Shown piece after piece: positions 7,132-58,680 of a stretch of DNA of 64,000 nucleotides. The DNA is from Nitrospirota bacterium (GTDB lineage Bacteria > Nitrospirota > 9FT-COMBO-42-15 > HDB-SIOI813). Numbering within the stretch: position 1 is the stretch's first letter; each line of letters starts with the position of its first letter. A program made the position numbers and the translations under genes. The stretch is taken from the NCBI GenBank assembly GCA_020846775.1, contig JADLDG010000035.1, positions 31,569-95,568 on the forward strand, in the 5' to 3' direction. The notes beneath the pieces were generated by a model. The model searched no databases, was not told the origin of the DNA, and saw nothing but the letters and a program-made list of their open reading frames with translations.

Positions 7132-7530
7132 TTAACGGCAGGCGATGGCTTCTATCTCAATACGAGCATCTTTGGGAAGGTTTGAAACTTCGACGGTAGA
7201 TCTCGCCGGTGGATTATCCGAAAAATAACTCTTATAAATATTATTAACCCTGTCAAAATCTTCAAGCCTTTTCAGGAATAACGTGGTTTTTACTATATCT
7301 GTCAACTCCATCCCGGCAGCTTCAAGAATGACTTTAATATTGGATATGACCTGCACCACCTGATCTTCTATTGGACCATTTACTGTTTCGTTTGTAGCAG
7401 GATTGACAGGTATCTGACCGGATATGAATAGAAACTTCCCAAATTTAATTGCCTGAGAATATGGACCTATTGCAACAGGCGCCTTTTTTGCCGAAACAAC
7501 CTTCTTGACATCATCACTCATCATTTTCAC
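7132..7530 (-). CDS. ridA: RidA/YjgF family reactive enamine/imine deaminase
   Basis: 132 aa. PVAIGPYSQAI and GQIPVNP motifs typical of YjgF/RidA. C-terminal EIEAIA motif. Confidence 0.8.
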   Translation of the reverse strand: MKMMSDDVKKVVSAKKAPVAIGPYSQAIKFGKFLFISGQIPVNPATNETVNGPIEDQVVQVISNIKVILEAAGMELTDIVKTTLFLKRLEDFDRVNNIYKSYFSDNPPARSTVEVSNLPKDARIEIEAIACR

Positions 7531-8119
7531 TTAACGCCTGCATTACCTCACCCTTTTCCAATGCCCGGTCCCTTAACATATCACGCTGTCTTTTAAAGAT
7601 GTACTTGATGAGGGTCTCTCTGTCATCCTCTTTTATTGTCAGGAAATTTATGACTGTCTCAAAATAGTTTTTTTCATCAGGTATTAGATCCTCTGACATA
7701 TCTCGTCTTATTACCTCGCCTGTTACAAAGATACTTGCAGGCGGGATAAAGGGGAGAACAATACATAAAATCATTAGCTGACCTGCCGTTGCAGGTGTAT
7801 CCAGGTGAATTCTTATACCAGAGGCACTGATACAGACATCCTGTTCCTTTGGTATCTCAACTATGGTCCTGCATTCAGGCGCTACGGTCTCAATAAGAAT
7901 ATCCATCTTCCTGTGTAAATCAATAATATGATTTAGCAACTTTGTATGATTCTCTTCTAATTCCTCTGAGGGCAGCAGTTGCGGGTATTTATTCCAAATA
8001 TAAGGGAAATATCTTTCAGGTCTGTTATTTTCTGCGATATCCTCTGCTGTAACAAACCTGTAGGCAAGCGGAATCTTATCTATGATCCTTACATTCTCTC
8101 TTCTGTCTATTGGCAGCAT
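7514..8119 (-). CDS. PilZ domain protein (putative c-di-GMP receptor)
   Basis: RxxxR motif (DRRENVR) at the N-terminus and a D/NxSxxG-like motif (CISASGIR). Its start overlaps the stop of the upstream GGDEF gene by a few nt, and its 3' end overlaps ridA. Confidence 0.55.
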   Translation of the reverse strand: MLPIDRRENVRIIDKIPLAYRFVTAEDIAENNRPERYFPYIWNKYPQLLPSEELEENHTKLLNHIIDLHRKMDILIETVAPECRTIVEIPKEQDVCISASGIRIHLDTPATAGQLMILCIVLPFIPPASIFVTGEVIRRDMSEDLIPDEKNYFETVINFLTIKEDDRETLIKYIFKRQRDMLRDRALEKGEVMQALSENDE

Positions 8120-8127
8120 ATTATATG

Positions 8128-9276
8128 TTAAAACACGAATGGTCCTAAAAATGAGTTGTCATGAGTAAATAAACGTCCACTCACCTCAATCCTGTTCCTG
8201 CCAGACTTCTTTGCATCATATAGGGCCTTGTCCGCCACGGAAATCATATCATCAACTGATTTGATTCCGGGACTAGGACAGCTTACAACACCAAAGCTTG
8301 CTGTCACCCTGATATTCTGCTCCTTAAAAAATACCGGTTGTTCTTCCAGAATTCTCTTAAGTCTTTTTGCGGCAAAAAATGCCTGTTCAACAGTTGTTTC
8401 CGGAAGGATAATTGCTATCTCATCTCCACCATAACGTGCAGGAACATCAATCTCTCTCAAACTCCTTATAAGCCTGTTTGAGATTTCATGTAATACAGCA
8501 TCACCTGCCTGATGTCCATGCTGATCATTAATATGCTTGAAATTATCCACATCTATCATCAGGAGTGAAACAGGATTTTGATACCTCATGGTGCTCTTAA
8601 ATGTTCTGGTAAGGCTCTCATAAAAATATCTGTTATTGAATAACCCGGTAAGGCTGTCAGTCGTTGCAAGTTCCTTTACTTCACGATGAATCTCTGAGTT
8701 CCTAAGTGCCAGCGCAAGGGTACTCACCAGCATAGATCCAAGATTATGCTCGTATCCTGTAAATTGTTTATCCATCTTCCTAATCAGGTGCAATGCTCCT
8801 ATTCTCGTATCACCAATTTCGATTGGATAACACAACCTGCCTGACAACTTTGAATTAAAACCCAAGCTCTCAGTCTGATCAGTTTTAATGCAATTTATTT
8901 CAACCTTGTAATCATCATTATCATCGGTCTCAACAACCTTCTTTATTGTTTGCAAGACATACTTCTTTATCTCTTCAGTATCTGCTACATATAACTGCAT
9001 TGTTGAGAATACCCATAACTTTTTTTGTTTGAATAGGACGACACAGAAAACATCGTGGGGCACTATATCCTGCATAATTGCAGCAGCGGAGGAAATGATT
9101 TTGTCGGAATCCAATGTACTTACTATTGCCTTACTCAGCTCATTTAAACAGCTTAAATCATCTCCCCATTTCTTCAAAGCATTCTTCTCTTCCAGAAGCT
9201 TCTTCTTTTGAATTCTTAATGCACTGTTTACCTTCTGAAGTTTCTTATATAGTTCCTGATCTATCTTTTTTTCCAT
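8128..9276 (-). CDS. GAF domain-containing diguanylate cyclase (GGDEF)
   Basis: N-terminal coiled-coil and GAF-like region. The C-terminal GGDEF domain has RYGGDEIAIILPE, so the final F of the signature is replaced by I. Confidence 0.75.
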   Translation of the reverse strand: MEKKIDQELYKKLQKVNSALRIQKKKLLEEKNALKKWGDDLSCLNELSKAIVSTLDSDKIISSAAAIMQDIVPHDVFCVVLFKQKKLWVFSTMQLYVADTEEIKKYVLQTIKKVVETDDNDDYKVEINCIKTDQTESLGFNSKLSGRLCYPIEIGDTRIGALHLIRKMDKQFTGYEHNLGSMLVSTLALALRNSEIHREVKELATTDSLTGLFNNRYFYESLTRTFKSTMRYQNPVSLLMIDVDNFKHINDQHGHQAGDAVLHEISNRLIRSLREIDVPARYGGDEIAIILPETTVEQAFFAAKRLKRILEEQPVFFKEQNIRVTASFGVVSCPSPGIKSVDDMISVADKALYDAKKSGRNRIEVSGRLFTHDNSFLGPFVF

Positions 9277-12195: not shown

Positions 12196-12993
12196 GTGAA
12201 TCAAACCTTTCATAACCTTAAGTACATTGAAAAAAAAAGATGGGAACTATTAAGTCTTGAATTATTAGTCCTCTCTTTCCTCACTATTTCCATCATAGTA
12301 TTGTCTCTCCTTGAACAAAAGTATTTAACTCTCTTATTTTTGCCAATTCTTACGGTATTATTCTCTGCCTACATAATTAACAAACAGCGGGAATTAAAGA
12401 AACTTGATGAAGACCTTTCAGAGGAGCTGTTCAGGAATGTTGAAGAGAAGATGAAGGCAGCCTCAATGCAAGAGAGACTAAGAGAAGTAACCCTGCTATA
12501 CAGGGCAGGCCGCATAACGGTTTCATCTCTAACACTGCAAATGAAGCTCGACAAGATGCTGCATCTTGCTTTCAATATGGTAAATGCCAATAGAGCGTCA
12601 ATCATGTTGATAAATGAGAGAATGGGGAACTTTGTAGTTGCAAGCTCTATAGGCAATTACCCGGACATAGTAAGGGCCAATTCGCAAAGGGTGGATGAAG
12701 GCGTAGCGGGATGGGTCTGCAAACACGGGACACCTCTGATCCTTACAGGGAAAGTTAATGATGACAGGTTTCACAACTTCCAGGACAAGCCTGAAGATAT
12801 CTCTTCTTCGATTTGCCTGCCCATAAAACTGAAAGGACAGGTAATAGGAGCGCTTAATTTAAATTATCAGCATGAACAAAAAAGGGTTTTTACAGAACAC
12901 GATGTACGTTTATTGTCCATCTTTGCAAGATATATCTCGACAACAATTGAGCAAACACAGATTTCTTTAAAGAAACAATCAATCCAGGCTTAA
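12196..12993 (+). CDS. membrane-anchored GAF domain protein
   Basis: Two N-terminal hydrophobic helices followed by a GAF-like domain (ASIMLINERMGNFVVASS ... LPIKLKGQVIGALNL). Confidence 0.5.
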   Translation: MNQTFHNLKYIEKKRWELLSLELLVLSFLTISIIVLSLLEQKYLTLLFLPILTVLFSAYIINKQRELKKLDEDLSEELFRNVEEKMKAASMQERLREVTLLYRAGRITVSSLTLQMKLDKMLHLAFNMVNANRASIMLINERMGNFVVASSIGNYPDIVRANSQRVDEGVAGWVCKHGTPLILTGKVNDDRFHNFQDKPEDISSSICLPIKLKGQVIGALNLNYQHEQKRVFTEHDVRLLSIFARYISTTIEQTQISLKKQSIQA

Positions 12994-21299: not shown

Positions 21300-22007
21300 T
21301 CATGATTTATGCTTCATCTTTTCCACATAATATACCATTGACTCAAAAAGGGTATATCCATCCGTCCCGCCAAGTATCTTTTCCCCGCATCGCTCAGGAT
21401 GCGGCATCATTCCCAGCACATTTCCCTTATCATTGCATACCCCTGCAATATTACCGATTGATCCATTAGGATTAAAATCATCATCTGTATTTCCATCATT
21501 CCCCGCATATCTGAAAACAATCTGATTATTCTTCCTAAGCTGAGAATATGACTCCTGGTCTATGTAATAATTACCTTCTGCGTGTGCAATCGGCATCTTT
21601 ACAATCTGATTTTCAAAATATTTAAGGGTAAAAGGTGTATTAATATTATCAACTCTTAGATAAACATCCTTACAGATAAACTTTAAGGATTTATTCCGTA
21701 ACATCACACCTGGAAGGAGCCCTGCCTCGAGGAGTATCTGAAAACCATTACATATGCCAAGGACAAGCCCTCCACTTTCTGCAAATTGCCTTACAGCTGT
21801 CATGATCGGGGAAAGCCGGGCTATAGATCCCGTTCGAAGGTAATCACCATAAGAAAAACCGCCGGGCAGGATGACTGCATCATATTGAGAGAGATCATTT
21901 TCCTTGTGCCATACAAAACTTGCAGGCCTGCCTAATACATGCTTTACTATATTATAGCAATCATGGTCACAATTAGAACCGGGAAATACGATTATGGCAA
22001 ATTTCAT
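21300..22007 (-). CDS. purQ: phosphoribosylformylglycinamidine synthase glutaminase subunit PurQ
   Basis: [16 protein letters not shown] start and a GICNGFQ glutaminase nucleophile motif. Start set at MKFAIIV. Confidence 0.9.
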
Positions 22008-22069
22008 TTTTAAAGAAGATTCGCTGCGAATCACACACCTTTTCGTTTATTATAACAGGAATTAAACTT

Positions 22070-22705
22070 TTACGGCAAGACCAAATTACACTGCTGGCTT
22101 TTATTGATAAAATCAACTATTGCTTCATTGAAATAATCTGGCAGAGGCGGCAGGATTACTGAAGTTCGCTGCCGATACAGTGCCCTGCCTTTTTCAATCT
22201 CTTTACTCAGGATATCATAGAATGTACCATCTGCAGCGCTCATATACGCTGTTTCATGGTTATAATGCACAATATCTGAAACAATGGCCCGTGCCAATCT
22301 CTTCATATCCTCTTTTATCTGCATATCCGAATCGCATGTGTAATACTTACAAACTGCCGCGAGGAGTTTAGTACTGACCAAATCTCTGTCAATAACATCA
22401 TCTGCATACTGATGCGCATCCTTACTGCTTTGAACATCGTACCCCGTTATCAGGACGACTCTTGTATTCCTGAAACGCTCCACACCCTTGATTATCTCGC
22501 ATGGTGAAAATCCCATTATCCTGGATAGTCCGGAGTCTGCGATTACTACAGCAGGACAGTACGATTCAATCAAACTGAAAAGCATATGCTGGTTTAATGC
22601 GGAAATAAATCTGAACCATTTAGGTTCAAGGATACGGGTAATAATTTCATTCAACCCCGGCTCAGTCGTGCATATCAAAATTACATCTGACGACGCATAA
22701 CTCAT
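22070..22705 (-). CDS. atypical/degenerate receiver (REC-like) domain protein with unknown C-terminal domain
   Basis: N-terminal roughly 120 aa follow the REC topology (DVILICTTEPGL ... PAVVIADSG ... VVLITGYD ... KLLAAV) but lack the canonical acidic DD pocket. The C-terminal roughly 90 aa are unknown. Its stop overlaps the cheW start (ATGA). Confidence 0.4.
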   Translation of the reverse strand: MSYASSDVILICTTEPGLNEIITRILEPKWFRFISALNQHMLFSLIESYCPAVVIADSGLSRIMGFSPCEIIKGVERFRNTRVVLITGYDVQSSKDAHQYADDVIDRDLVSTKLLAAVCKYYTCDSDMQIKEDMKRLARAIVSDIVHYNHETAYMSAADGTFYDILSKEIEKGRALYRQRTSVILPPLPDYFNEAIVDFINKSQQCNLVLP

Positions 22706-23202
22706 ATGTGCTCCATCCTGGTCTCAATCAATAATATTAAGTTATTATTGAATTTAAAAGCTGCCTTAAAATATTTTAAGCTCTCTTTTCCAATAAAATC
22801 AGGAACAGGCAAATATCTGCCTAAAGGTACAGACACGATCCCTTCAACTGAATCAGCAAGTATACCTATAAAGAAATCATCATAATGCACTATCAGAATA
22901 CGAGTGCTCCCGGTGACATTTGTAGCTGATCTTCCGATATATTCCATAAAATCAAGCACTGGAATTACTATCCCTCTTAAAGGCAAAACACCTTTGACAT
23001 ATGAGCACGTGTTGGGAACTGCTGTAAGCCCTGTGTAGTGAATCACTTCCTTTACCATTGAAACTCCCATGGCATATTCCTGACGGGATAGCCTGAAAAT
23101 CAGACATTTTTCTGCTGAATATTCAGAACTGATATCTGAGCTGCCTGCGATAGATGTGTCGTCTTTTCCCCGTAAATTAGGACGATATGTCATAATTGTC
23201 AT
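22702..23202 (-). CDS. cheW: chemotaxis coupling protein CheW
   Basis: 166 aa. CheW-like domain pattern (LIFRLSRQEYAMGVSMVKEV ... GVLPLRGIVIPVLDF ... RILIV). Confidence 0.75.
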   Translation of the reverse strand: MTIMTYRPNLRGKDDTSIAGSSDISSEYSAEKCLIFRLSRQEYAMGVSMVKEVIHYTGLTAVPNTCSYVKGVLPLRGIVIPVLDFMEYIGRSATNVTGSTRILIVHYDDFFIGILADSVEGIVSVPLGRYLPVPDFIGKESLKYFKAAFKFNNNLILLIETRMEHI

Positions 23203-23208
23203 AAACCT

Positions 23209-24135
23209 TCATATCCCGCTGCCATATGCAACTCGGTTTCTGCCATCACGTTTTGCCCTGTACAATGCCTGATCAGCCTTATTAATCAATGCATCACAAC
23301 CCTCCTTGGTGTCATCAGGGAATGTCGATACTCCTATGCTTGCTGTCACCGGTCTGCCACCATTCAACTCAATCAGGAGCGGGTTATCTTCTATGATTTT
23401 TCGGATTCTTTCAGCCACAATGTGAGACCCGATAACTGTATTTTGTGACAGGACGATAATAAATTCATCACCTCCATATCTAACTGCAAAATCATATCCT
23501 CTAACCATTACCTGCAGAAGTTTTGCGACTTCCTTGATAATTTCATCACCACGCTGATGTCCAAAGGTATCGTTAATGTCTTTGAAATTATCAATATCCA
23601 TGATTATCAGGGAAAGCTTAAGGTTAAAACGATCACTTCTATTATATTCTCTCCTGAGTGTATCGTATAGATATCGCTGATTATATAAACCAGTTAGTGA
23701 ATCTACTACAGTTACATGTTCCAACTCTGCTATTTTGGTTTTTAGTTCTTTCTGAAGGCTTTTCATCCTCAATAATATACTTACCCTTAAAGACAATTCA
23801 TGCGGATGAAATGGTTTAGTCATGTAATCTATGGCCCCGCTTTCGAGGCCTTTAATCCTGTCATATATTTTCCGGTTGGAAGACAACATGATAACCATGA
23901 TATCCTCAAACCTCTTTTCCTTGTTTATCATTTCCATTAACCGGAATCCATCCATTCCCGGCATCACTACATCGCAGACTATCATATCAATATTTTCTTT
24001 AGATAAGATCTTTAAAGCGCTGAAACCATCATTTGCCTCAAAATAACGTACAAACAGGTTTGCATTCCTGAGACTTTCGATTACTTTCTGTCGCAAAAGT
24101 GGGGAATCATCAATTATTAATACACTGTTATTCAT
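23209..24135 (-). CDS. response regulator-diguanylate cyclase (REC-GGDEF, WspR/PleD-like)
   Basis: REC domain (LIIDDSPLLRQ, phospho-acceptor D in IVCDVVMPGMDG, conserved K in TKPF). GGDEF domain with an intact GGDEF signature and an RxxD I-site five residues upstream (RGYD). Start set at MNNSVLIIDD. Confidence 0.8.
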   Translation of the reverse strand: MNNSVLIIDDSPLLRQKVIESLRNANLFVRYFEANDGFSALKILSKENIDMIVCDVVMPGMDGFRLMEMINKEKRFEDIMVIMLSSNRKIYDRIKGLESGAIDYMTKPFHPHELSLRVSILLRMKSLQKELKTKIAELEHVTVVDSLTGLYNQRYLYDTLRREYNRSDRFNLKLSLIIMDIDNFKDINDTFGHQRGDEIIKEVAKLLQVMVRGYDFAVRYGGDEFIIVLSQNTVIGSHIVAERIRKIIEDNPLLIELNGGRPVTASIGVSTFPDDTKEGCDALINKADQALYRAKRDGRNRVAYGSGI

Positions 24136-24288
24136 TAAACGACTTTTCGGTAACTGATTGAATATCTTAAGAAAGAGAACACGGTAAAAGCGCAAACCCG
24201 ATTAGTCGGGAAATCACTCCGGGGAATTAGTTAACTGCCTGAGAAATCGTCTGAATATTGTTCTAAAGTGGATACAGGATAGTCTATT

Positions 24289-26376
24289 TCAGGCAAAAAC
24301 TCTTTCTGCAAGTCCGATGACGTCTATAACTGGTACAACCTTTCTGGCATCTATCTCTGCAAACCCTTCAATACCCTGAATTTCTTTTAGGAACTTACCG
24401 GGAGGTTTAATAAGGATCTCTCTCTGACCATGTATTTTATCAACTATAATACCCATTCTCTTCTGTGCCAAGCCCGCTATAATTACGTATTCATTCTTGC
24501 TGTATGACTCCCAGTGACCTTCATGGTATTTCAGGACATCCTTTAATCTAACCAGAGGCAAGAAATCTCCTCTAAGGTTAATACTTTCTCTATCCCTGAT
24601 AATTTTTATTTCGCATTCCTTTAAGCTGAGATTTTCCGATATCAAATTTACAGGTATTGCAAATTCCCGTCCTGACTCTGAAACTATCAGAGCCCTGACT
24701 ATAAGCAATGTTACAGGAAGTGTAATACGGAAAGTAGTTCTCTTACCATAAACTGTTTCAACTTCTATCATACCAGACAAATCCTCTATGCTCTTTGCTA
24801 CCACATCAAGGCCTACCCCTCTGCCGGATATGTCATCTATTGTGTTTTTTGTGGTAAAGCCCGGCATAAAAAGCATCTTCAGGAGTGTCTTTTCATCCAT
24901 TTCATCATTTCTAAGCAGACCCATGATAAGCGCCCTGTTTTTAATAACATCAAAATCAATACCACATCCATCATCTTCAATGTCAATCACCACAGTCCCA
25001 TCTCTCTGCACAGACGTAATTCTTATTGTCCCTGCAGGATCCTTACCTCTTTTTCTCCGTACTTCATCATCCTCTATACCATGATCAATTGCGTTACGTA
25101 TTATATGCATTAGTGGGTCTGCAATTTCTTCTATAATTGACTTGTCCAGTTTAGTATCACCACCGGACACTTCAAACTTTATTTTCTTCGACAAGTCCTT
25201 TGAAAGCACTTCCACTATTCTATTTAGCCTTGTGTACAAATACTCTATGGGTACCAACCTTATATCTATGAGTTTATCTCTCAAGAATGCTATTTTCTTG
25301 TGCAGCTGCCTGGTAGATCTATGAATGTCAAGGAAAACCAGGTCTTTGCCGTACTTCATCTTCAGGTCATTCATCAGGTGTGTTACAGTACTATTTAATA
25401 ATAATATTTCTCCTACGGTATCAAGCAGTGTCTCCAGCCTTTCAATATCAACCCTGACTGTCTTGGCTATGCTTTTTACCGTCTGTGGAGGAGGTTCGAC
25501 CTGATCAATAATTTGTTCCTGTATTTGAGTTTCAAATGGGTCACCTTCCAAGTCTATATTCTGGATACTTATTATTTCACCAGAAAATAGAGGATCCCGC
25601 TCACTAACCCTGTCTTCCGCAACTTGTTCAAGAAACTCCTGCCCCTGCATCATTTGAGTCCCTGAGACCAGTTCATAACGACGCAAAATATCTTCATGTT
25701 GCGAGGAATAAAGAAGTTCAAAAGATGCCATGTCATCCTCGGAAAACCCGGAGACTGGCATTACTGTGATAACCTCTCCGTAGCATGTAAGATTCGCCCT
25801 GAGTTCTGTCATCGCATCATCAACAGTGTCAATATGCGTTCGTACAATAATCCTGAAAATCCTGCGCCCTTCTTTAACAGACTCCATAAGTCTGTGTTGC
25901 TCAAATTCAGGCAGCCTCCCTAACAGAGCATACGGTAATCCGGCAAATCTATTGTTCTTAAAAGTTTCATCATGTATCCCGCTATCAAGGTATAGCCCCA
26001 TTTTTTCAATTACCGGCCCTATCTCAGTATACTCTTCTCCCTGATCATTAATATTGTTAAGGAGCTCCGTAAAGACATCAGCAACTTCAAATAACGTATC
26101 TACAACTTTATAATTTAGCTGAATCCTGCCGAACCTGAGACAATCCAACAAATCTTCGAGGTTGTGACTTAATGAGCTTATCCTTGGAAACCCGGATATC
26201 TCAGAAATTCCTTTCAAGGTATGGATTTCACGAAACACAGCATTAACTACATCCGGATATTGTACCGTTGCTGTATTGCATGTTGATTTCAGTATATAGA
26301 GGTTTTTGTTGAAATTACTGACAATATCCTCTGCCTCAGCCAGGAAGTCCTTGTGATTATTATATTGTTTATTCAT
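24289..26376 (-). CDS. cheA: CheA-type histidine kinase (Hpt - atypical linker - dimerization - HATPase - CheW-like)
   Basis: Hpt motif HTLKG. H-kinase dimerization region (VRVDIERLETLLDTVGE). HATPase_c (DHGIE...DDGCGID, GRGVGLDVV). C-terminal CheW-like domain. A roughly 200-aa segment between Hpt and dimerization is not a canonical P2. No fused REC. Confidence 0.8.
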   Translation of the reverse strand: MNKQYNNHKDFLAEAEDIVSNFNKNLYILKSTCNTATVQYPDVVNAVFREIHTLKGISEISGFPRISSLSHNLEDLLDCLRFGRIQLNYKVVDTLFEVADVFTELLNNINDQGEEYTEIGPVIEKMGLYLDSGIHDETFKNNRFAGLPYALLGRLPEFEQHRLMESVKEGRRIFRIIVRTHIDTVDDAMTELRANLTCYGEVITVMPVSGFSEDDMASFELLYSSQHEDILRRYELVSGTQMMQGQEFLEQVAEDRVSERDPLFSGEIISIQNIDLEGDPFETQIQEQIIDQVEPPPQTVKSIAKTVRVDIERLETLLDTVGEILLLNSTVTHLMNDLKMKYGKDLVFLDIHRSTRQLHKKIAFLRDKLIDIRLVPIEYLYTRLNRIVEVLSKDLSKKIKFEVSGGDTKLDKSIIEEIADPLMHIIRNAIDHGIEDDEVRRKRGKDPAGTIRITSVQRDGTVVIDIEDDGCGIDFDVIKNRALIMGLLRNDEMDEKTLLKMLFMPGFTTKNTIDDISGRGVGLDVVAKSIEDLSGMIEVETVYGKRTTFRITLPVTLLIVRALIVSESGREFAIPVNLISENLSLKECEIKIIRDRESINLRGDFLPLVRLKDVLKYHEGHWESYSKNEYVIIAGLAQKRMGIIVDKIHGQREILIKPPGKFLKEIQGIEGFAEIDARKVVPVIDVIGLAERVFA

Positions 26377-26389
26377 CTTTCCAACTTTG

Positions 26390-27409
26390 TTACTTTGATG
26401 CCATTAATACAATACCTGCTACCTTGATAAAAGCCTCAAGGGTTGAAGTATCACCTATTTGCCCCCTTCCAGGCAGATTGTCTCCATATAGTATCGCTGT
26501 AACCGTTTTATCTTCTATTAAAGGAGCTACGAAGACCTCTTCAGGTAATCCTGCGCCAAGATGTTTAAAAAGGTATGAATTCCAATCAGATTCAGGCAAC
26601 TGCCCTTTGTAACTCATTCTATTAGTTATAACATCTTTAATTACAGAAGGCTTATCAAGGGGAATACAAAGCCCCTCTATCCTTATTTCAGCTGAATCCA
26701 ACGATATTCCAACTTGTCCAAACCCAACTGCCTTCTCTCCGTCAAGCTTGAATATAACCGCTCTGCTCATCATTTCTCCTGCAAACCTCAGAAGCATGAC
26801 TAACATCTCAGTACTCGCTGCAGGAACTGACAGCTCTTCAATCAATGAAATCAGGGTGTTGGGATAAGCTCCATACTCTACGGCTGAAGATCCTGAGGGC
26901 ATGTTTTCTATAGGTACTTGAACCATCTTTTTGCCCTCGTCCCTCAGTCTGGTTCCTTCGAGCAGGATATACTCAGTACTCACACTTATATTTTGAGGAA
27001 TTTTAGGCATTGGCTGTTCCGGTTCAAAGCGAAACACCCCTTCTTCCCAAGACAACATTTCATATATGATTTCTTTTATCTGCGACTGGATAAAGGATTC
27101 AAGTGCATCTTTTTCAATCAACTTGTTCTCTGTCAGTATGGCGCCCAAGGGTTCATAAATCTTCCTGTCCCGTTGAATCCTCAAGGCTGCTTCGAGGTCG
27201 CCTTCCATCAAGACACCTTCCCTGATCAGCCTTTCTCCAAGTTTTTCTTTGCCATGCATTGAGGCATACAGCATCTTCCCGTCGTGAAATACAACTCTCC
27301 CACTTCCGGCAGGGCTTTCTAATTTCAAGATTCCGCTTTTCTTGCTCAAATGGACTATCTGAAGTATATCCGGAAGGCTAAGATCTGATAAGTGTCCTTC
27401 GAGGCTCAT
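26390..27409 (-). CDS. DUF4388-like N-terminal domain plus GAF-like domain protein
   Basis: N-terminus LSDLSLPDILQIVHLSKKSGILKL matches, from memory, the DUF4388 domain seen in Che-associated proteins. The C-terminal half resembles a GAF fold. Sits between purS and cheA. Confidence 0.4.
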   Translation of the reverse strand: MSLEGHLSDLSLPDILQIVHLSKKSGILKLESPAGSGRVVFHDGKMLYASMHGKEKLGERLIREGVLMEGDLEAALRIQRDRKIYEPLGAILTENKLIEKDALESFIQSQIKEIIYEMLSWEEGVFRFEPEQPMPKIPQNISVSTEYILLEGTRLRDEGKKMVQVPIENMPSGSSAVEYGAYPNTLISLIEELSVPAASTEMLVMLLRFAGEMMSRAVIFKLDGEKAVGFGQVGISLDSAEIRIEGLCIPLDKPSVIKDVITNRMSYKGQLPESDWNSYLFKHLGAGLPEEVFVAPLIEDKTVTAILYGDNLPGRGQIGDTSTLEAFIKVAGIVLMASK

Positions 27410-27441
27410 AATTAATAAGGGTTCTATGAAAACAATAAGGT

Positions 27442-27687
27442 CTATTTTTCAATTTCATATCGGAAATCCTCTACAATAGTATTAGCGAGGAGCTTATTAC
27501 ACATCTCCTTAATCTGAGAATCCAAATTCTCCCCGGATGTATCATCGAAACTTAACTCTATATACTTTCCTATCCTGACATCAGCAACAGATGCATACCC
27601 CAGAGTCTTTAATGAATGTTTAACCGCCTTACCCTGCGGATCCAAGATACCATTTTTTAACGTAACATATACTCGTGCCTTCAACAA
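27442..27687 (-). CDS. purS: phosphoribosylformylglycinamidine synthase subunit PurS
   Basis: 81 aa. MLKARVYVTLKNGILDPQGKAV is a typical PurS sequence. Confidence 0.85.
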   Translation of the reverse strand: MLKARVYVTLKNGILDPQGKAVKHSLKTLGYASVADVRIGKYIELSFDDTSGENLDSQIKEMCNKLLANTIVEDFRYEIEK

Positions 27688-27730
27688 TCAACCTCCCTCC
27701 GGCCGATAGATTACACCTACCAACCTTTCA

Positions 27731-29020
27731 TCAGAATATCCTGTTAAAAATATAATCTACATGCTTCAAATGATAATCCATATCAAAGCATGACCTTACA
27801 TCAGCCTCACTCAACTGCGACATTACATCTGAATCATGAAGAAGCAGATTCTGAAATTCCTCGCCTTTGTTCCATGCACTCATGGCATTTTTCTGTACCA
27901 GCCTGTATGCCTTATCCCTGTCCATTCCTTTTCTTACAAGCTCGAGCAATACCCTTTGTGAATTAATAAGTCCACGGGTCAAGTTTAGATTCTTCATCAT
28001 ATTTTCAGGGTAGACGACCATATCCCTCATGATACTTATCAACCTGTTGAGCATATAGTCTATAAGAATCGTACTATCAGGCATAATAATGCGTTCCGCT
28101 GAAGAGTGGCTGATATCACGCTCATGCCACAGCGGGATGTTCTCCAGCGCCGCAACACAATTGGACCGGACAATCCTCGCCAGGCCGCAGATATTTTCAG
28201 ATCCTACCGGATTCCTCTTGTGCGGCATTGCAGAAGAACCCTTCTGTCCTTCGGTAAAAGGTTCCTCAACCTCCAGCACCTCTGTTCTTTGGAGATGCCG
28301 GATCTCAGTAGCAATTTTATCAAGTGTACCTGATATAATGCCGAGCGTACACATGAATTCGGCGTGCCGGTCTCGCTGCAAAATCTGGGTAGATACGGGC
28401 GCTGGTTTTAAGCCCAGCTTTTGACACACATATTCTTCAACAAATGGTGGTATGTTGGCAAAGGTTCCAACCGCACCTGATATCTTGCCACAGGCAATCG
28501 TATCCCTTGCCCTGACAAGGCGATCTATATTCCTCTTTGTCTCTTCGTACCATAAGGCCATTTTAAGCCCAAACGTCACCGGCTCTGCATGAATGCCGTG
28601 AGAACGTCCCATCATGACGGTATTCTTGTAGACATTTGCCTTTTCCTTTAACACATCCAGAAGCCTGTACAGATCATCAAGGATAATGTCTGACGCATCC
28701 ATTAATTGCAGGGCAAGCCCTGTATCAAGGATATCAGATGATGTCAGTCCCAGATGGAGGTATTTTGCTTCATCACCGATACACTCGGAAACTGCAGTGA
28801 GAAAGGCTATAACATCATGTTTAACATCAAGTTCAATCTCATTGATCCGTTCCGTATTTATTCTACCCTTTTCTTTAATTACTTTGACTGCACCCTCAGG
28901 TATCTCACCCTTTTGGGCCAATGCCTCACAAACCAGAACTTCAATGGCAAGCCACTTACTATATTTATTTTCCGGTTCCCATACATGCTTCATCTCAGGC
29001 AGTGCATAACGATCTATCAT
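27731..29020 (-). CDS. purB: adenylosuccinate lyase
   Basis: 429 aa. Fumarate lyase superfamily signature (GSSAMPHKRNP). Confidence 0.9.
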   Translation of the reverse strand: MIDRYALPEMKHVWEPENKYSKWLAIEVLVCEALAQKGEIPEGAVKVIKEKGRINTERINEIELDVKHDVIAFLTAVSECIGDEAKYLHLGLTSSDILDTGLALQLMDASDIILDDLYRLLDVLKEKANVYKNTVMMGRSHGIHAEPVTFGLKMALWYEETKRNIDRLVRARDTIACGKISGAVGTFANIPPFVEEYVCQKLGLKPAPVSTQILQRDRHAEFMCTLGIISGTLDKIATEIRHLQRTEVLEVEEPFTEGQKGSSAMPHKRNPVGSENICGLARIVRSNCVAALENIPLWHERDISHSSAERIIMPDSTILIDYMLNRLISIMRDMVVYPENMMKNLNLTRGLINSQRVLLELVRKGMDRDKAYRLVQKNAMSAWNKGEEFQNLLLHDSDVMSQLSEADVRSCFDMDYHLKHVDYIFNRIF

Positions 29021-39011: not shown

Positions 39012-39428
39012 CTATTGTCCCACCAATTTTTCATTAAGTTCAGATAAACCATTTTTACCTTCTAAAAGAATTGGATTCAATTCATACTCTATAAGGTCCG
39101 CGAGGGTTATCCAATCCTTTCCTTCAAAGGCAGAGAGCATCTCTTTAAAGATATCAATGGATTTATTCCACGATGAAAGGGATTCTGATGAGATTTCGGA
39201 CTGTTCCAGACCATTCCTCAATTCCCTGATAAAATCCATAAGGTCGCTGAGATTGTCCATCAAGCCTGATATTTCATTAAAGACCCTCTCAGTTTGTTCA
39301 ATCCTGAGGGAATTGGCACAATCCATTAATCTGGCGCTGATCTGCCCAATACTCTCACAGGTGCTTATAATGCCATCAGTTATAGCTGTCAATAATTCCT
39401 CCCTTTTCTTAACATCTATGTTTGCCAT
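39012..39428 (-). CDS. hypothetical protein
   Basis: 138-aa acidic helical ORF. Its start overlaps the stop region of the upstream GT9-like gene (39416..39428), suggesting co-transcription with the flagellar modification island. Confidence 0.35.
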   Translation of the reverse strand: MANIDVKKREELLTAITDGIISTCESIGQISARLMDCANSLRIEQTERVFNEISGLMDNLSDLMDFIRELRNGLEQSEISSESLSSWNKSIDIFKEMLSAFEGKDWITLADLIEYELNPILLEGKNGLSELNEKLVGQ

Positions 39429-41134
39429 ACGCCTCTCCCTTCTAATGTTAAAGTGCTATTGTTGTTAAACGGTTCAATAAGCTGAATCATTGCAGAGGTC
39501 TGGATTATAAGATTCTTGTATAAGGTGCATGCTGCACTGGCTAAGACCGCTACGTCTTCGCCTTCAAGACTTTCTCTCCCGAATTTAAAGTAAATCACAA
39601 TGGGACGCAGTGCAATATTAGTAAAACCAATTATATCTATATCCTGATCAATTAGTGGTACATCTGCCCAGATATCTTTAATCTTTGCGATATCAGGATT
39701 TTCCCTCTTAGCCTCTTCCGCTATCAGGCTGACTTTTTCAAGTGCCCTCCCGGCTAATTCCTTAAGGCTCCTGAGTGCATCAATCTCATTACTAATTTCC
39801 CAACCGTTAATCCCTTCTGTCACCACTTTTGAAAAAAGGGATTTATCGGGATGATGGCGTAGCGGGGAATTCTCCGGCACAATGGAAGCAGCATTGTGAT
39901 CAAGGGTCTGCAGCCACACCAGTCTGTACAAGTGACGGAAAAAGTCTTCCCTGGTAATGGGCCTTTTGATCCTTGGTATGTACTCTAATAATCCATCATC
40001 AGAAAAGACGGCCTCATTAACCTGCATACCATCCCATAAAGGGGAGTCATCAACCTCCTTTAAACGACCATCGTTATAAAGCATCTCAATAACCCTGTAG
40101 ACACCATCCACACTGACAGTGTCATTACAGATCATGTCCTGACACTTTACATGAAAGCTGCAAGGGTGACAAGGGAGATTCGACTCTATTACTATATGTC
40201 CTTTCCCATATGGGCCGGTCTCACGGAAATAGGCCGCACCGAGGGAGATTCCTATAACCCTTGTCCCTACGGCCGTCGCAATATGCATTGTACCTGAATC
40301 GTTAGAAACAAGAAGATTACAGCACTTCAGATAGGCAGCAAGCTCCTTCAGCGATGTCTTGCCGACCATATCTATTACATCGCTTCCAACCCCCATCTTT
40401 ATTTCTTCACCCAGCGCCCTTTCGCCGCCTGAACCGAAGACTATAACCTTTGCTCCAAGCCTGCTCGTTAATTTCTTTGCAAGTTCAACATATCGTCCTG
40501 TGGCCCACATCTTATGTCTGTCACTAGCGCCCGGCTGAAATCCTATTACAAAATCACCACCGCTGACCCCCGATTTCCGTAATTGCGATTTAGCGGTATC
40601 AAAGACTTCTTCCGGGACTTCCAGAAAAAGTCCTTTTTCTTTCGGCATGGCCCCACCGGCCTTAATATATATGTCACATAGATGAAAAGGATTGTAAATC
40701 CTTCCAGGGACTATATTGAAGAAATATCTTAACCATGGATGTTTTATAAGGGAATGTCCTTTATTATCAGCAATGTATCCCCTGAACTCTTTAGAGCTGA
40801 CGAGAGACATTATGGCTGCACTCACTGTTGTATGAGTGAAGTTTATCACACAGTCATACCCGACCCTGTTTATATCCTCCAACATCTCTTCCATATACCT
40901 GTATTTGCTGACAAGACCGGGGAACTCACCACGCCCGCCCGCTATGAATCCATCCATATTGAAGCTTATGAGCCTGTCTACAAATGGGATGTAGTTACAT
41001 ATTTCGGCAAAGGCGGAGTTTATCAGCAACGTAATCCTGACATCAGTGTAGGCGTCTTTTAGACCTGCCATCACAGGGGTAGTTTGAACAAGGTCTCCCA
41101 TACGTGTAAGATTGATTATCAGGACATTTTTCAT
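39416..41134 (-). CDS. glycosyltransferase family 9 (heptosyltransferase-like) fused to a roughly 230-aa C-terminal domain of unknown function
   Basis: N-terminal NVLIINLTRMGDLVQTTPV pattern typical of GT9/RfaF-WaaC. C-terminal third has no recognisable motif. Confidence 0.5.
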   Translation of the reverse strand: MKNVLIINLTRMGDLVQTTPVMAGLKDAYTDVRITLLINSAFAEICNYIPFVDRLISFNMDGFIAGGRGEFPGLVSKYRYMEEMLEDINRVGYDCVINFTHTTVSAAIMSLVSSKEFRGYIADNKGHSLIKHPWLRYFFNIVPGRIYNPFHLCDIYIKAGGAMPKEKGLFLEVPEEVFDTAKSQLRKSGVSGGDFVIGFQPGASDRHKMWATGRYVELAKKLTSRLGAKVIVFGSGGERALGEEIKMGVGSDVIDMVGKTSLKELAAYLKCCNLLVSNDSGTMHIATAVGTRVIGISLGAAYFRETGPYGKGHIVIESNLPCHPCSFHVKCQDMICNDTVSVDGVYRVIEMLYNDGRLKEVDDSPLWDGMQVNEAVFSDDGLLEYIPRIKRPITREDFFRHLYRLVWLQTLDHNAASIVPENSPLRHHPDKSLFSKVVTEGINGWEISNEIDALRSLKELAGRALEKVSLIAEEAKRENPDIAKIKDIWADVPLIDQDIDIIGFTNIALRPIVIYFKFGRESLEGEDVAVLASAACTLYKNLIIQTSAMIQLIEPFNNNSTLTLEGRGVWQT

Positions 41135-41137
41135 TGA

Positions 41138-42952
41138 TCAATCCTTCTTCGCAGCAAACTGCTTACCGATCTCATTTATCAATACAAATATCTTATCCAC
41201 TCTCGAAAGTTCACCCACACCGGACGCCATATCATCAACGATATCAGAGATAGTAATAGCTCCTTTATTTCTGAACCGTTCCAGATACCTGCCAAGTTCA
41301 GTATGCCTGTCAGCCTCTGCGATAAGCCCCTCCACATCCTCTTTTCTTGAATCCCATGAAGGACGCTCATATCCCCTTTCAAGGATAAACTCAAACATCT
41401 TTTCCATCCTGTGCTCATAAGTATGTTCTTTTATCACCCTTTCCATTCCTCTTTGCGCTATCGCAGCCATTTCTTCATGATTTTCCAGATAATAGTTGAT
41501 CTTTCTCCTCGCATCAGTGAGATCTTTAAAGCATATAATCTCTTCATCCATATTGAACAGTTCTAACAAATTAGACCGGCAATCAACCAATTGAAAAGAC
41601 CCGCATGCTGCTATTTCAAATGTCCTTGGATTGACAAAATCACCGTGAGGGTTAACCCCTTCGTGATATGTGGAAGAATGGATGTTAATATTTATCTTCG
41701 AAGCATTAAATATCTTTACTGTCTCTTCTGTATCTATCCATTCACCGCCTCTTTGAATATGCCTCAGCAATGGCAGGCCGACATCCCACTCGCTCCCCCA
41801 TATCTTAAGATCAAAATCAAGCAATCCGCTGAAGAAAAACCTCCTGTTATGGTATCCGGCCCCAACAAACGATATATCACTTCCGTAAGTGTCTATTTCT
41901 TCTTTTGTCAGGTAAAGCCTCCGGTGAACTTCCTGAGATGCAGCCATAGGAAGATATGAGTAGTTTCTAACGCCACTCGCATCTAATTTGTCAAAAAACT
42001 GGTCCCTCTGGATGGTGAAGAAATAATCATAAAGGGGCGCTATCCTCTCCCAGTAGTTCATAAACCTGAAGTCCTCAACAAACCAGAAGGCGGTGGGTAT
42101 CCTGTTCTCTTTAAGCTTCTGCAGACTTCCTTCGGTTAAAGGGGCCTGTGCAAGGGCAAAAACGAGGTCTGGCTTAAACTCTGCGCACCGTGCTATGGCT
42201 GCCTCTGACAGAAAGGAGATAAACATGGAGCGCAGTTGATTCTGATGGGCCTTTTCACCTGTTATCCCGGGGATTGACTGAAAGACTTCGTTATACTTAC
42301 TGTTGTCTACATAATCAACCTGATGACCCAGTTTTTTCAAGGCAGAGACGCAGTATCCTGCAACAGGGAGAGAGCCGCCGTAGATCGGCCCTACGACCAT
42401 GATCTTCAAACCACTCTTCACAGTCTGACGTAATCTTAGTTTCTTATGGAGGTTCTTTAAACATGATTCACTTACCATGACAGATGGACTATGCTCTACT
42501 ATTGTAAAGCATTTTGGCAACAACGGTATTTTATCCCCTGTTAACAGTTTCACCCTTGTGAGGACATGAGTTAAATCAAAATGTTCCAGAGCTGTTTTCA
42601 GGATATCGAGCCTTGGCTCATAGACAATTATCTCCATACCTGAAATATTGCAAATATCGAGCTCGCAAAGCCCGGCAACATGGTACCCAAGTCCAAAACC
42701 GAGGACGACAACAGCAGATCCCATTTCAACCTTTTCCCGCTGATATTCAACCCACTTGCCAGCCTCCTTCTCAGGATCATACAGGCTATGCAGGGTGATA
42801 TCCCCTACCTTCAAAGAAAGTTTCCCTGACTTAGATGTATGCAGCTTCAAATCATCACTGACACATGCCTCAATAACTGAAGTTGCAAGTGCAGGGTCAT
42901 ATTTCTTCATGACCTCTAAATTTCTATCGAATATGAGGTTATTGGCAGACAT
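41138..42952 (-). CDS. Maf-like (DUF115/MptE-like N-terminal) - CgeB-like (DUF3880 + GT1) putative flagellin glycosyltransferase
   Basis: N-terminal HSLYDPEKEA and VVLGFGLGYH motifs recur in the paralog at 46778..48460. The C-terminal half resembles the CgeB/YkvP glycosyltransferase-like domain. Confidence 0.5.
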   Translation of the reverse strand: MSANNLIFDRNLEVMKKYDPALATSVIEACVSDDLKLHTSKSGKLSLKVGDITLHSLYDPEKEAGKWVEYQREKVEMGSAVVVLGFGLGYHVAGLCELDICNISGMEIIVYEPRLDILKTALEHFDLTHVLTRVKLLTGDKIPLLPKCFTIVEHSPSVMVSESCLKNLHKKLRLRQTVKSGLKIMVVGPIYGGSLPVAGYCVSALKKLGHQVDYVDNSKYNEVFQSIPGITGEKAHQNQLRSMFISFLSEAAIARCAEFKPDLVFALAQAPLTEGSLQKLKENRIPTAFWFVEDFRFMNYWERIAPLYDYFFTIQRDQFFDKLDASGVRNYSYLPMAASQEVHRRLYLTKEEIDTYGSDISFVGAGYHNRRFFFSGLLDFDLKIWGSEWDVGLPLLRHIQRGGEWIDTEETVKIFNASKININIHSSTYHEGVNPHGDFVNPRTFEIAACGSFQLVDCRSNLLELFNMDEEIICFKDLTDARRKINYYLENHEEMAAIAQRGMERVIKEHTYEHRMEKMFEFILERGYERPSWDSRKEDVEGLIAEADRHTELGRYLERFRNKGAITISDIVDDMASGVGELSRVDKIFVLINEIGKQFAAKKD

Positions 42953-42989
42953 AATTTCCTGAATTATCTTCTTCCTTTTCTCATTAAGT

Positions 42990-43991
42990 CTAAACTATTG
43001 CTTTTGACGAAGCCCTGTTTATTATGCCTTTAAGCCCAATGGCATCACTTCTTTCGGGCTCAAACAGGAGAAGTTTATCTATGCTATCAAGTGCCTTATC
43101 AAGTTGCCCGAGCTTGAAGCTCACATCTGCATGCCGATAAAGAAAATCAGTATCAGCCGGATGATGTACCAAATACTCCTCCAGGATATCAATAGCCTTA
43201 TTGAAATCCTGGGAATCGATTGCTGACATCAGGGTATTACACATCTTTTTATTTCCAGACTTTTCTGCCTTTATCAGGTATTGAATTATAAAGAGATCTT
43301 TAAGTTCTTCATGTGACAGACCTTTCAGATTAACCCTGCCAAAGGATATCTCTCCTGAAAGAGGATCATGCAAGGAACTATAAGCAGGATCAATATTGGC
43401 AGTTATCCCTGTTATCTCATATCCAGCCTCTGTAAACAGGGATTCCATATCTTTCATCGTAAAGAATCTCAGATGGGTTCTATCGAGGATACCCGAGTCC
43501 TGATACTTCCAATGCCCTTCCACCAGCATGTTTAGAACCCCGTAATACCGTACATTCGGAATGCTTGCGACAATAGAACCAGAATCAGCAAGATAGTGTT
43601 TGAATCTCCTGAGTGTTGACAATGGTTCCTTCAGGTGTTCCAGTATGTCGGCAAATATAATACAGTCAAAATAACCATCTTCATATTGAAGTTCCAGACA
43701 CGTCACATCTCCCTTTATAACCCGTGACAGATTCTCATTTGCCCTCTTACTCGCAATTGGATCAACTTCAATACCAACAACTTCTTCAGCCCCTTTTTCC
43801 AGCAGCCTTTTCCCGAGTATACCCTCTCCGCAACCCACATCAAGAATCCTCATGGCTTCCTCGGGCACAAGAGTCTCGACTTCTTTTCTTCCCTGGCGAA
43901 AGTATTCCCTGTCAACAGTCTTATCTAATCCATTTTGCGTCTGACTCCTCGTATCGTTAATCACTTTATCTCCTGCGCTACATGGATACAT
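42990..43991 (-). CDS. class I SAM-dependent methyltransferase fused to TPR repeats
   Basis: SAM-binding motif I ILDVGCGEGILG. Motif post-I/II (DCIIFADILEHL). C-terminal TPR-like repeats. Confidence 0.6.
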   Translation of the reverse strand: MYPCSAGDKVINDTRSQTQNGLDKTVDREYFRQGRKEVETLVPEEAMRILDVGCGEGILGKRLLEKGAEEVVGIEVDPIASKRANENLSRVIKGDVTCLELQYEDGYFDCIIFADILEHLKEPLSTLRRFKHYLADSGSIVASIPNVRYYGVLNMLVEGHWKYQDSGILDRTHLRFFTMKDMESLFTEAGYEITGITANIDPAYSSLHDPLSGEISFGRVNLKGLSHEELKDLFIIQYLIKAEKSGNKKMCNTLMSAIDSQDFNKAIDILEEYLVHHPADTDFLYRHADVSFKLGQLDKALDSIDKLLLFEPERSDAIGLKGIINRASSKAIV

Positions 43992-46767: not shown

Positions 46768-46777
46768 AACCAGCTGT

Positions 46778-49973: not shown

Positions 49974-49984
49974 TATTTCTCCCC

Positions 49985-51319: not shown

Positions 51320-51353
51320 TTGAAGCCTCCATTAAAGAAGTAATTGAATATTT

Positions 51354-53065: not shown

Positions 53066-53461
53066 TCAGATGCTTATGCTTATAGTGGAGCCATTCTGAT
53101 TACATTTATTATGACGGGAAAATAATTTAAAGTTCTCAAGAACACTTATCTGGTCCAATAAAGAAGCCATTTCTAACTGAAGTGTATTCTTCATCTCATT
53201 GTTACGGGTCAGAATTTTCTCGATGTTTATAACCATCTCCCTTGAACCATTATTACGGTGATTATGGGCCTCCTCATTCAATGGGAGTAACTGTGTATTC
53301 ATTACTTCTCTGTCAATATTTTGGATGTCATCAATAATTCTCTGACGTTTTTCGAGTATTTCTAACGCCTCATCAAACCTTTCATCCCGAAGTGCATTTA
53401 ACTGATCCTCTGCCAGTCCAAGCAGTTTTTTGTACAGACTTAAGACTCTTTCACTACTCAT
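53066..53461 (-). CDS. putative flagellar export chaperone FliT-like protein
   Basis: 131-aa helical protein immediately after fliS (4-nt overlap), in the fliD-fliS-fliT position of Bacillus-type operons. No diagnostic motif. Confidence 0.3.
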   Translation of the reverse strand: MSSERVLSLYKKLLGLAEDQLNALRDERFDEALEILEKRQRIIDDIQNIDREVMNTQLLPLNEEAHNHRNNGSREMVINIEKILTRNNEMKNTLQLEMASLLDQISVLENFKLFSRHNKCNQNGSTISISI

Positions 53462-53874: not shown

Positions 53875-53895
53875 GTTATATACCTCCCGATTATT

Positions 53896-55293: not shown

Positions 55294-55323
55294 CCATTAC
55301 ACCCCTTCATCCTGAAAAACAAT

Positions 55324-55698: not shown

Positions 55699-55704
55699 GT
55701 AAAT

Positions 55705-55736
55705 ATGGGGACGGCACTGTTGGCAGGCCGCCCCCA
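55705..55736 (-). terminator. putative rho-independent terminator downstream of flagellin gene
   Basis: Minus-strand ggggcggcctgccaacagtgccgtcccc forms an imperfect GC stem followed by atattt. It is conspicuously GC-rich and lies about 30-60 nt after the fliC stop. Confidence 0.4.
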
Positions 55737-55763
55737 TATCCTTATTAATTTCAGATTAACACC

Positions 55764-56618: not shown

Positions 56619-56623
56619 GTTAT

Positions 56624-56686: not shown

Positions 56687-56753
56687 AGTCACTCTTTTTT
56701 TCACCTCCTTTTTCTCTTATTATTTATATTTGTTAAATTATCCATTGGATTCA

Positions 56754-58659: not shown

Positions 58660-58680
58660 CTCTATTTCCCTTAATTAACC

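Follow-up and report, generated by a model that had tools for sequence, protein, structure and literature searches.

A degenerate receiver joined to a RomX-like bundle in a PATAN-CheA-CheW type chemotaxis-like operon of a Nitrospirota bacterium

The stretch analysed here (the window) comprises 64,000 nucleotides from a Nitrospirota bacterium (GenBank assembly GCA_020846775.1, contig JADLDG010000035.1, positions 31,569 to 95,568 of the forward strand). On its minus strand, directly after cheW, it encodes a protein of 211 amino acids (aa), in which a degenerate receiver-like domain (REC*) is followed by a three-helix bundle resembling RomX of Myxococcus xanthus. We regard this REC*-RomX protein as a core accessory subunit of a PATAN-CheA-CheW type chemotaxis-like system, and we are highly confident of its domain and family assignment. 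We propose, with a probability of about 0.5, that it serves as a two-domain, phosphorylation-independent adaptor of the kinase complex; the most likely partner of its RomX face would be an MglA-type GTPase, although a reading that depends on MglA is less probable.

In a preliminary description of the sequence, the C-terminal ~90 residues had been left unassigned. When a profile of the orthologues was searched against all PDB sequences, the top match was RomX of M. xanthus (8ZNA, chain 8zna_A; E 7.3e-14), with window residues 133-204 aligned to RomX 8-79 (72 residues), far ahead of the receiver matches. Moreover, RomX was the only PDB match when the C-terminal 85 residues alone were used as a single sequence (E 6e-9). 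An AlphaFold2 (AF2) model built on 17 orthologues (mean pLDDT, the predicted local distance difference test score, 78; pTM, the predicted template modelling score, 0.54) placed helices at residues 126-159, 162-181 and 191-207, forming a three-helix bundle, and the pLDDT of this part was about 80-93 in means over 10-residue blocks, with dips near 181-190 and 201-210. The region is thus assignable as a RomX-like three-helix bundle. No model in Pfam or NCBIfam covers this domain, and therefore the relatives carry public names such as 'hypothetical protein', 'zinc-ribbon domain-containing protein' or 'response regulator transcription factor'.

RomX is a three-helix bundle that is sandwiched between the receiver domain of RomR (RomR-REC) and MglA-GTP (Chakraborty and Gayathri, bioRxiv 10.1101/2024.02.20.581209). 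According to the same study, its helix 1 (R11, R14, D19) binds MglA only with GTP, while helix 3 (L75, R76) together with W87 binds the RomR receiver (E108, V17); the R11A/R14A substitution abolishes MglA-GTP binding, and both R11A/R14A and D19A lose nucleotide-exchange activity. In the window protein, the helix-1 motif R136-L-A-R139-A-I-V-S-D144-I-V-H-Y-N149 carries R136, R139 and D144 at the positions of R11, R14 and D19. R136 and D144 are invariant among the orthologues and R139 is at least 90% conserved. Of 80 related genome loci (described below), 78-79 retain the R/L/A/R/I/S/D/Y residues of the motif and 76 retain its last N, although these loci were retrieved by a pattern that includes IVSDI..Y, so that conservation there is partly ascertainment and the sample is biased to close matches; R-L-A-R falls outside the retrieval pattern. 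The helix-3 basic residue of RomX (Arg76, often Lys) aligns with K202, which is at least 90% conserved, and the Leu of RomX corresponds to Asn201. The tail QQCNLVLP, with which the window protein ends, is confined to close orthologues and is missing in more distant relatives.

The N-terminal ~120 residues had been described as following the beta-alpha pattern of a receiver. Pfam Response_reg (PF00072) matched residues 9-116 (E 1.5e-5) at 25.6 bits, below the gathering score of 30.2 bits. The AF2 model placed strands at 8-12, 32-35, 53-57, 83-87 and 103-106 with helices in between, a CheY-like (beta-alpha)5 fold in which alpha-4 is not formed and residues 88-102 have low confidence. The described pattern therefore holds for the Pfam match and the strands, but not for helix alpha-4, and both the fold and the profile match placed this domain with CheY-like receivers rather than in an unrelated family.

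We then mapped the receiver residues by a HMMER alignment to PDB 3b2n and by alignment A1, which holds the 17 orthologues and underlies all statements on invariance among close orthologues. The conserved Asp noted earlier in VVIADSG is Asp57, invariant in all 17 orthologues, and the acidic pocket is missing, as had been recognised, with T13-T14 (in CTTEPG) at the position of the acidic pair (the Mg2+ positions D12/D13 of CheY). By contrast, the putative Lys of that description is absent; Arg107 stands at the aligned position, which is R, M or I among the orthologues. The acidic pair shows T/A/D variants among close orthologues, and the residue adjoining the lost pair (E/D15) is conserved as acidic; orthologues P0016 and P0017 carry Asp at positions 14-16. 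Across the 80 genome loci, the pair is mostly N/H and E/P. In the wider family, D57 is kept as Asp in 57 of 71 relatives, T87, which is present in the window protein, has usually become A or G, and at the Lys position 31 of the 71 have K and 16 have R. The degeneracy of the receiver therefore extends through the whole family and is not confined to the window protein. L60 (71/71) and G65 (67/71) are kept and mark out a family-specific beta3-alpha3 signature.

To place the protein in its family, we used an exhaustive HMMER search of 1.84 billion cluster representatives, which returned 493 proteins at E<=1e-3. The 17 full-length orthologues (56-100% identity) all come from metagenomes or Nitrospirota-type metagenome-assembled genomes. 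Few of the 493 relatives are as compact as the window protein; most have 280-460 aa with an N-terminal extension, and some have 600-990 aa with up to five RomX-like repeats. The longer relatives carry an N-terminal zinc ribbon (ZnR) with invariant Cys at 5, 8, 28 and 31, and Pfam Zn_ribbon_4/5 was found in the Geobacteraceae locus L026 and in 120 relatives listed, but not in the window protein, which begins 6 residues before beta-1 and has lost both the zinc ribbon and the long linker. What the window protein keeps is the family layout of degenerate receiver, D-x-G-L...G signature and RomX-like domain (alignments A1, A2). Seven metagenomic relatives of 600-990 aa (P0020-P0024, P0026, P0030) consist of one zinc ribbon, one receiver-like domain and then 3-5 tandem RomX-like bundles separated by acidic low-complexity linkers, an arrangement pointing to a multivalent contact with the helix-1 partner.

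The 80 loci came from a pattern scan over GTDB, with one genome for each species, and were annotated by local phmmer with the window proteins as seeds. The hidden Markov model of the family spans both the receiver-like and the RomX-like domains in 72 of them, and 51 loci with both domains and at least 8 kb of upstream sequence were informative for the neighbourhood. In these, CheA (47/51), CheW (47/51) and PATAN (48/51) are encoded upstream of the gene on the same strand. The carriers belong to Nitrospirota (Ca. Manganitrophus among them), to Geobacteraceae and further Thermodesulfobacteriota, and to Myxococcota and Spirochaetota. In the full clusters of Geomobilimonas (L026), Manganitrophus (L017) and Myxococcota (L083), the Pfam assignments run PATAN(-REC-GAF), CheY, CheA, (AAA ATPase), CheW, (methyl-accepting chemotaxis protein, MCP, or REC), CheW, (MCP), ZnR-REC*-RomX, HEAT-repeat protein, CheR, CheB, GAF protein and CheY. 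The ATPase of the Geobacteraceae cluster is a 266-aa AAA_22 P-loop protein between cheA and cheW (L026:7154-7954); it does not occur in the window and could be another nucleotide-dependent partner. Five Acidobacteriota loci (L056, L068, L071-L073) encode ~750-aa proteins that end in a RomX-like domain, without a receiver-like domain or nearby che genes, so the RomX-like bundle occurs in a different architecture as well.

In the window, the gene is followed by purQ and not by the HEAT-repeat gene, cheR and cheB of the full clusters. Close orthologues (56-77% identity) have the identical order purS, PATAN, CheA, REC-GGDEF, CheW, REC*-RomX, purQ, and two intermediate relatives on contigs shorter than 2 kb have purQ downstream (P0025) or REC-GGDEF upstream (P0034). 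The full-size cluster of Ca. Manganitrophus likewise ends directly before purQ, and because of this the five-gene module of the window has the look of a pared-down descendant that kept its place on the chromosome. In another Nitrospirota locus (L011, 43% identity), PATAN, CheA, REC-GGDEF and the gene are present without cheW. The gene is thus retained in reduced clusters that have lost HEAT, CheR, CheB, MCP and even CheW, which indicates that it travels with PATAN and CheA, its invariant companions.

The ATGA overlap with cheW claimed in the preliminary description is present in the sequence. Two orthologous loci (L001 and L003) have the identical 4-nt overlap and a third (L005) overlaps by 17 nt; in ~13 further loci from other phyla, the start of the gene overlaps the end of cheW by a few nt, and in about half of the loci it lies within 35 bp of a cheW. 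We infer that REC*-RomX is co-produced with CheW through translational coupling. The further claim of a fixed stoichiometry had been read from the overlap; the L011 lineage retains the gene without any cheW.

The minus-strand order in the window is purB, purS, PATAN, CheA, REC-GGDEF, CheW, REC*-RomX, purQ, purL, purF, PilZ and radA (Table 1); the five-gene module is thus inserted between purS and purQ in a purB-purS...purQ-purL-purF run (21300-29020). The signalling genes are separated from each other by gaps of between -4 bp and about 150 bp, and their co-transcription is plausible. A consensus scan for promoters and terminators over 15.5-30 kb gave counts no different from shuffled sequence, so the limits of the operon are not callable. 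The REC-GGDEF protein probably starts at 24135, giving 308 aa as in its orthologues, and in its translation the receiver residues are complete (DD, D, S, K), the GGDEF motif is intact and an RxxD I-site is present. Two genes upstream of REC*-RomX, it is the likely phospho-acceptor of CheA, as judged from these residues. The PATAN protein has a near-perfect MshEN-like cyclic di-GMP (c-di-GMP)-binding motif inserted at residues 56-110 (KLGERLIREGVLMEGDLEAALRIQ), for which NCBIfam NF053729 (MshEN-type) scored 33.3 bits against a cut-off of 38 (E 3e-8); a PATAN protein from Geobacter has a similar-sized insertion within its DUF4388 match. The motif, together with REC-GGDEF of the same operon, suggests a c-di-GMP feedback loop. 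The PilZ protein encoded after purF is kept there in four orthologous loci (L001, L003, L005, L011); it could read the c-di-GMP that REC-GGDEF produces.

Table 1. Coordinates in the window of the REC*-RomX gene, its parts and its neighbours
Feature	Coordinates	Strand	Details
Whole open reading frame (ORF), pseudo-receiver + RomX-like domain	22070..22705	minus	from ORF list and translation, 211 aa; stop codon 22070-22072
REC* domain, residues 7-121	22343..22687	minus	T13-T14 at 22664-22669; Asp57 at 22535-22537; Thr87 kept; Arg107 at Lys position
RomX-like three-helix bundle, residues 126-207	22085..22330	minus	PDB profile search and AF2 helices
Helix-1 motif, R136 to N149	22259..22300	minus	aligned to RomX R11/R14/D19
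C-terminal tail QQCNLVLP, residues 204-211	22073..22096	minus	Q204, L208, L210, P211 invariant (alignment A1); in place of the Trp87-bearing RomX tail
ATGA start/stop overlap of cheW and REC*-RomX	22702..22705	minus	ATG 22703-22705; cheW TGA 22702-22704
Shine-Dalgarno-like GGAG	22711..22714	minus	5 nt before the ORF ATG, within cheW coding sequence; read from sequence
CheW, 166 aa	22702..23202	minus	Pfam CheW 85 bits
REC-GGDEF (response regulator-diguanylate cyclase)	23209..24195	minus	Pfam Response_reg 91 bits, GGDEF 163 bits
CheA histidine kinase, 695 aa	24289..26376	minus	Pfam Hpt, dimerisation, ATPase and CheW-like domains
PATAN (DUF4388) protein, 339 aa	26390..27409	minus	Pfam DUF4388 118 bits, spanning 4-159 on a 122-position profile
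purS	27442-27687	minus	5' neighbour of PATAN gene
purB	27731-29020	minus	in purine run
purQ	21300-22034	minus	next gene after REC*-RomX
PilZ protein, 119 aa	17308-17667	minus	directly after purF

We propose the following model. The REC*-RomX protein would accept no phosphate; CheA would phosphorylate the neighbouring REC-GGDEF, and the resulting c-di-GMP would be read by the MshEN-like motif of PATAN and by nearby PilZ proteins. REC*-RomX would work as a docking or output adaptor, in which the receiver-like domain probably holds the bundle in cis via helix 3, as RomR-REC holds RomX. Given that the inter-domain geometry of the AF2 model is uncertain, this docking is put forward by analogy. The invariant helix-1 face (R136, R139, D144) would be left free for a partner. 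As this partner has survived the loss of HEAT, CheR, CheB and MCP, it would be PATAN or CheA, or else an unlinked protein such as an MglA-type GTPase. By homology, an MglA-type small GTPase in its GTP form would be the most likely candidate, and the kinase complex would thereby be tied to a cell-polarity or localisation switch. A broader version, in which REC*-RomX is the missing output adaptor of the Che8, group beta, Nitrospirota and Spirochaetota systems and couples CheA/CheW/PATAN to an MglA/MglB-type switch, is offered tentatively and we regard it as rather doubtful.

Three functions had been offered in the preliminary description, and among these the phosphorylation-independent adaptor fits best. 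A phosphate sink or CheY-like variant is unlikely, because the metal-binding pair and the Lys are gone and REC-GGDEF with its intact receiver lies two genes upstream. On such an account, Asp57 would receive phosphate from CheA, and the protein would then act as a signal itself or divert phosphoryl groups from REC-GGDEF. The invariance of Asp57, the presence of Thr87, the conserved acidic position 15 in close orthologues (with Asp at 14-16 in P0016 and P0017) and the location of the gene in a CheA operon speak for it. Yet both metal-binding Asp are replaced by Thr, the Lys position is R/M/I in close relatives and Lys in only 31 of 71 wider ones, Thr87 gives way to A or G in most of the wider family, the Pfam score stays under the gathering cut-off with alpha-4 not predicted, and a complete receiver is available on the neighbouring REC-GGDEF; we therefore consider phospho-acceptance improbable. 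Even less credible, to the point of being negligible, is a DNA-binding response regulator transcription factor. This idea follows the NCBI name of P0016 ('response regulator transcription factor') and weak NCBIfam matches to PhoB, NblR and YycF, but those matches reach at most 22 bits against cut-offs near 300 and lie essentially on the receiver part, while RomX is the one PDB match of the C-terminal domain, and neither Pfam nor NCBIfam places that domain in a DNA-binding family. The transcription-factor candidate was rejected on these grounds.

The most probable of the alternatives is a structural scaffold without any GTPase, in which the RomX-like bundle binds PATAN or CheA and assembles, localises or tunes the kinase complex, comparable to CheV or an accessory CheW. 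PATAN and cheA are the sole constant companions of the gene, while the HEAT-repeat gene, cheR, cheB and even cheW can go; no mglA or mglB lies near any locus; the overlap of the gene start with the end of cheW in many loci suggests one complex; and ZnR-type switch modules outside Myxococcales do not correlate with MglA/MglB (PMC11135422). However, the residues that are invariant across phyla are exactly those that RomX uses for MglA-GTP, the Cys residues in the zinc ribbon of the longer relatives are spaced as in the MglB-binding GltJ ZnR, and M. xanthus mglA is also unlinked to its known partners, so missing linkage says little. We hold the scaffold to be possible but on the unlikely side.

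Several observations weigh against an MglA-type partner and against a purely phosphorylation-independent adaptor. In the 64-kb window no mglA or mglB was found, nor did either turn up within 10 kb of a related locus (80 loci), and local phmmer detected none in 89 fetched loci; the MglA seed of this search was validated (97% identical to annotated MglA), whereas the MglB seed was not validated. A 2014 survey with about three Nitrospirae genomes recorded only a Rup GTPase in them. A database search with MglA gave 8000 matches, the 120 listed being essentially all myxobacterial, and was uninformative for Nitrospirota. The zinc ribbon is gone from the compact form in the window, nothing corresponds to RomX Trp87 in a protein that ends at 211 with a different conserved tail, and the inter-domain geometry of the model is uncertain (pTM 0.54). 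In addition, IVSDI..Y was part of the retrieval pattern, which makes the helix-1 conservation in part a product of the sampling. Asp57 is invariant in close orthologues and an acidic residue (E/D15) always stands beside the lost pair, so some phosphorylation or metal binding by REC* is conceivable. Furthermore, the biochemical role of RomX itself is disputed: it is a guanine-nucleotide exchange factor in one study, while a 2026 paper argues that RomRX is an MglA-GTP effector and not an exchange factor (PMC13408092).

Other observations connect the family with MglA and MglB. The spacing of Cys 5, 8, 28 and 31 in the longer relatives equals that of the GltJ ZnR, an MglB-binding ribbon similar to the PopZ-binding ZnR of ZitP (PMC11135422). 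PATAN genes are recorded neighbours of mglA and mglB, and M. xanthus mglA is not encoded beside its known partners (PMC4316618). MglA-MglB operons are present in Geobacter and Myxococcus, both of them carriers of the full cluster.

We compared the window protein with named systems. It is homologous to RomX (8ZNA) over 72 residues and shares the three-helix bundle (predicted for the window protein), the helix-1 residues R11/R14/D19 and the helix-3 basic residue. Like the RomR/RomX pair, it brings a receiver domain together with a RomX bundle. However, RomX stands alone, with ~90 aa, and its partner RomR is a separate protein of several domains, whereas the window protein is one 211-aa chain with a degenerate receiver, without a RomR-like disordered or C-terminal region and without Trp87, and its gene lies in a CheA/CheW operon. 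No RomR-like gene was seen in the window. A Foldseek analysis had already identified many AlphaFold-DB models that join a receiver to a RomX-like fold, often with a zinc finger too, and called them uncharacterised; the preprint gives no gene-neighbourhood analysis of these proteins (bioRxiv 10.1101/2024.02.20.581209). Proteins of this kind, such as A0A2N6E6P0 (Desulfuromonas), share with the window protein the receiver and RomX-like tandem, the signature D-x-G-L...G...RF/L, the invariant helix-1 motif and the PATAN-CheA-CheW type cluster. They differ in having 280-460 aa, a GltJ/ZitP-type N-terminal zinc ribbon and a long linker, both of which are absent from the window protein and its closest relatives.

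The published che8 cluster of M. xanthus consists of CheY8a (4751), CheB8 (4752), CheR8 (4753), the unlisted 4754 and 4755, CheW8a (4756), CheW8b (4757), CheA8 (4758) and CheY8b (4759) (PMC3945109). Read from MXAN_4759 to 4751, this is the order of the full clusters, in which the ZnR-REC*-RomX and HEAT-repeat genes fall at the two unlisted positions. When family members from Myxococcota were used in a profile search to find a named orthologue in M. xanthus, with MXAN_4755 as the predicted gene, only uncultured relatives came back. The equivalence with che8 thus rests on published gene order, to which the taxa can be added, and we infer it with MXAN_4755 as the predicted counterpart. The 'group beta' clusters of Geobacter, common to Myxococcus, Stigmatella, Anaeromyxobacter and Plesiocystis, contain cheA and cheW together with cheB and cheR, lack an mcp, and their function is unknown (Tran et al., PMC2577667); gene order and taxa indicate that they are probably equivalent as well. 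In comparison with che8 and group beta, the window cluster has no CheY, CheR, CheB, HEAT, GAF or MCP gene and a single CheW, and REC-GGDEF replaces CheY.

For the neighbouring REC-GGDEF gene, the closest parallel considered was Wsp, in which a CheA-like kinase phosphorylates the diguanylate cyclase WspR. The window cluster likewise combines CheA and CheW with REC-GGDEF (GGDEF and I-site), which makes c-di-GMP its likely output. However, it has neither a WspA-type receptor nor WspC/WspF, and PATAN and REC*-RomX are foreign to Wsp. Pseudo-receivers of the FrzS type have no specific sequence relationship to the window protein beyond the fold, as FrzS has a differently lost Asp arrangement, a long coiled coil and no RomX-like domain.

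The window contains further genes related to these themes. A 265-aa coiled-coil and GAF protein is encoded at 12196-12993 (plus), with 26% identity (E 7e-13) to L017:14324-15175. It resembles the GAF protein between cheB and cheY of the full-size clusters, is kept beside tatC in orthologous loci and is possibly a displaced remnant of the ancestral cluster. At 7514-9276 (minus), a second c-di-GMP pair consists of a GGDEF protein (382 aa) and, after it, a PilZ-domain protein (201 aa). A late flagellar cluster at 53066-63928 (minus) encodes FliS, FliD, FlaG, flagellin, FliW, a second flagellin-like gene (FlgL?), FlgK, FlgN, FlgM, a rod-binding protein, FlgI, FlgH and FlgA. This shows that the organism is flagellated, and its motility may be a target of the c-di-GMP/PilZ genes. 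Immediately upstream of this cluster, the region 39416-52988 (minus) encodes a run of large glycosyltransferases (GT9, GT1, GT2, DUF3880/Glyco_trans_1_2 and a Maf-like N-terminal domain), along with methyltransferases and two radical-SAM/B12 proteins, and it is possibly a flagellin glycosylation island.

The tandem of receiver and RomX fold has been listed before, without a function, and is not new. New are the compact ribbon-less REC*-RomX form, the systematic membership of the family in che8/group-beta-type clusters with PATAN, and the reduced version with c-di-GMP output inside a purine operon. Within the limits of our literature search, we found no paper that makes these connections or ties RomX-like domains to chemosensory clusters.

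Until now, RomX has been known just as RomR's small, free-standing partner within the polarity module of Myxococcus. Here, a RomX-like domain together with a pseudo-receiver is a conserved gene product of a widespread chemotaxis-like cluster of unknown function, and the family gives a concrete hypothesis on what the Che8/group-beta systems talk to. The natural single-chain REC-RomX form would be useful for structural work on the RomR-RomX interface, and the misleading 'transcription factor' annotation is corrected. In the window, what looked like an odd CheY would be explained as an adaptor and not a phospho-acceptor, and CheA signalling would then most plausibly be routed to c-di-GMP synthesis. 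If the proposed partner is right, there would be a direct chemosensory-to-GTPase link outside myxobacteria, and the stripped-down, single-chain version of Nitrospirota would tie a c-di-GMP-producing kinase complex to an MglA/MglB-type switch.

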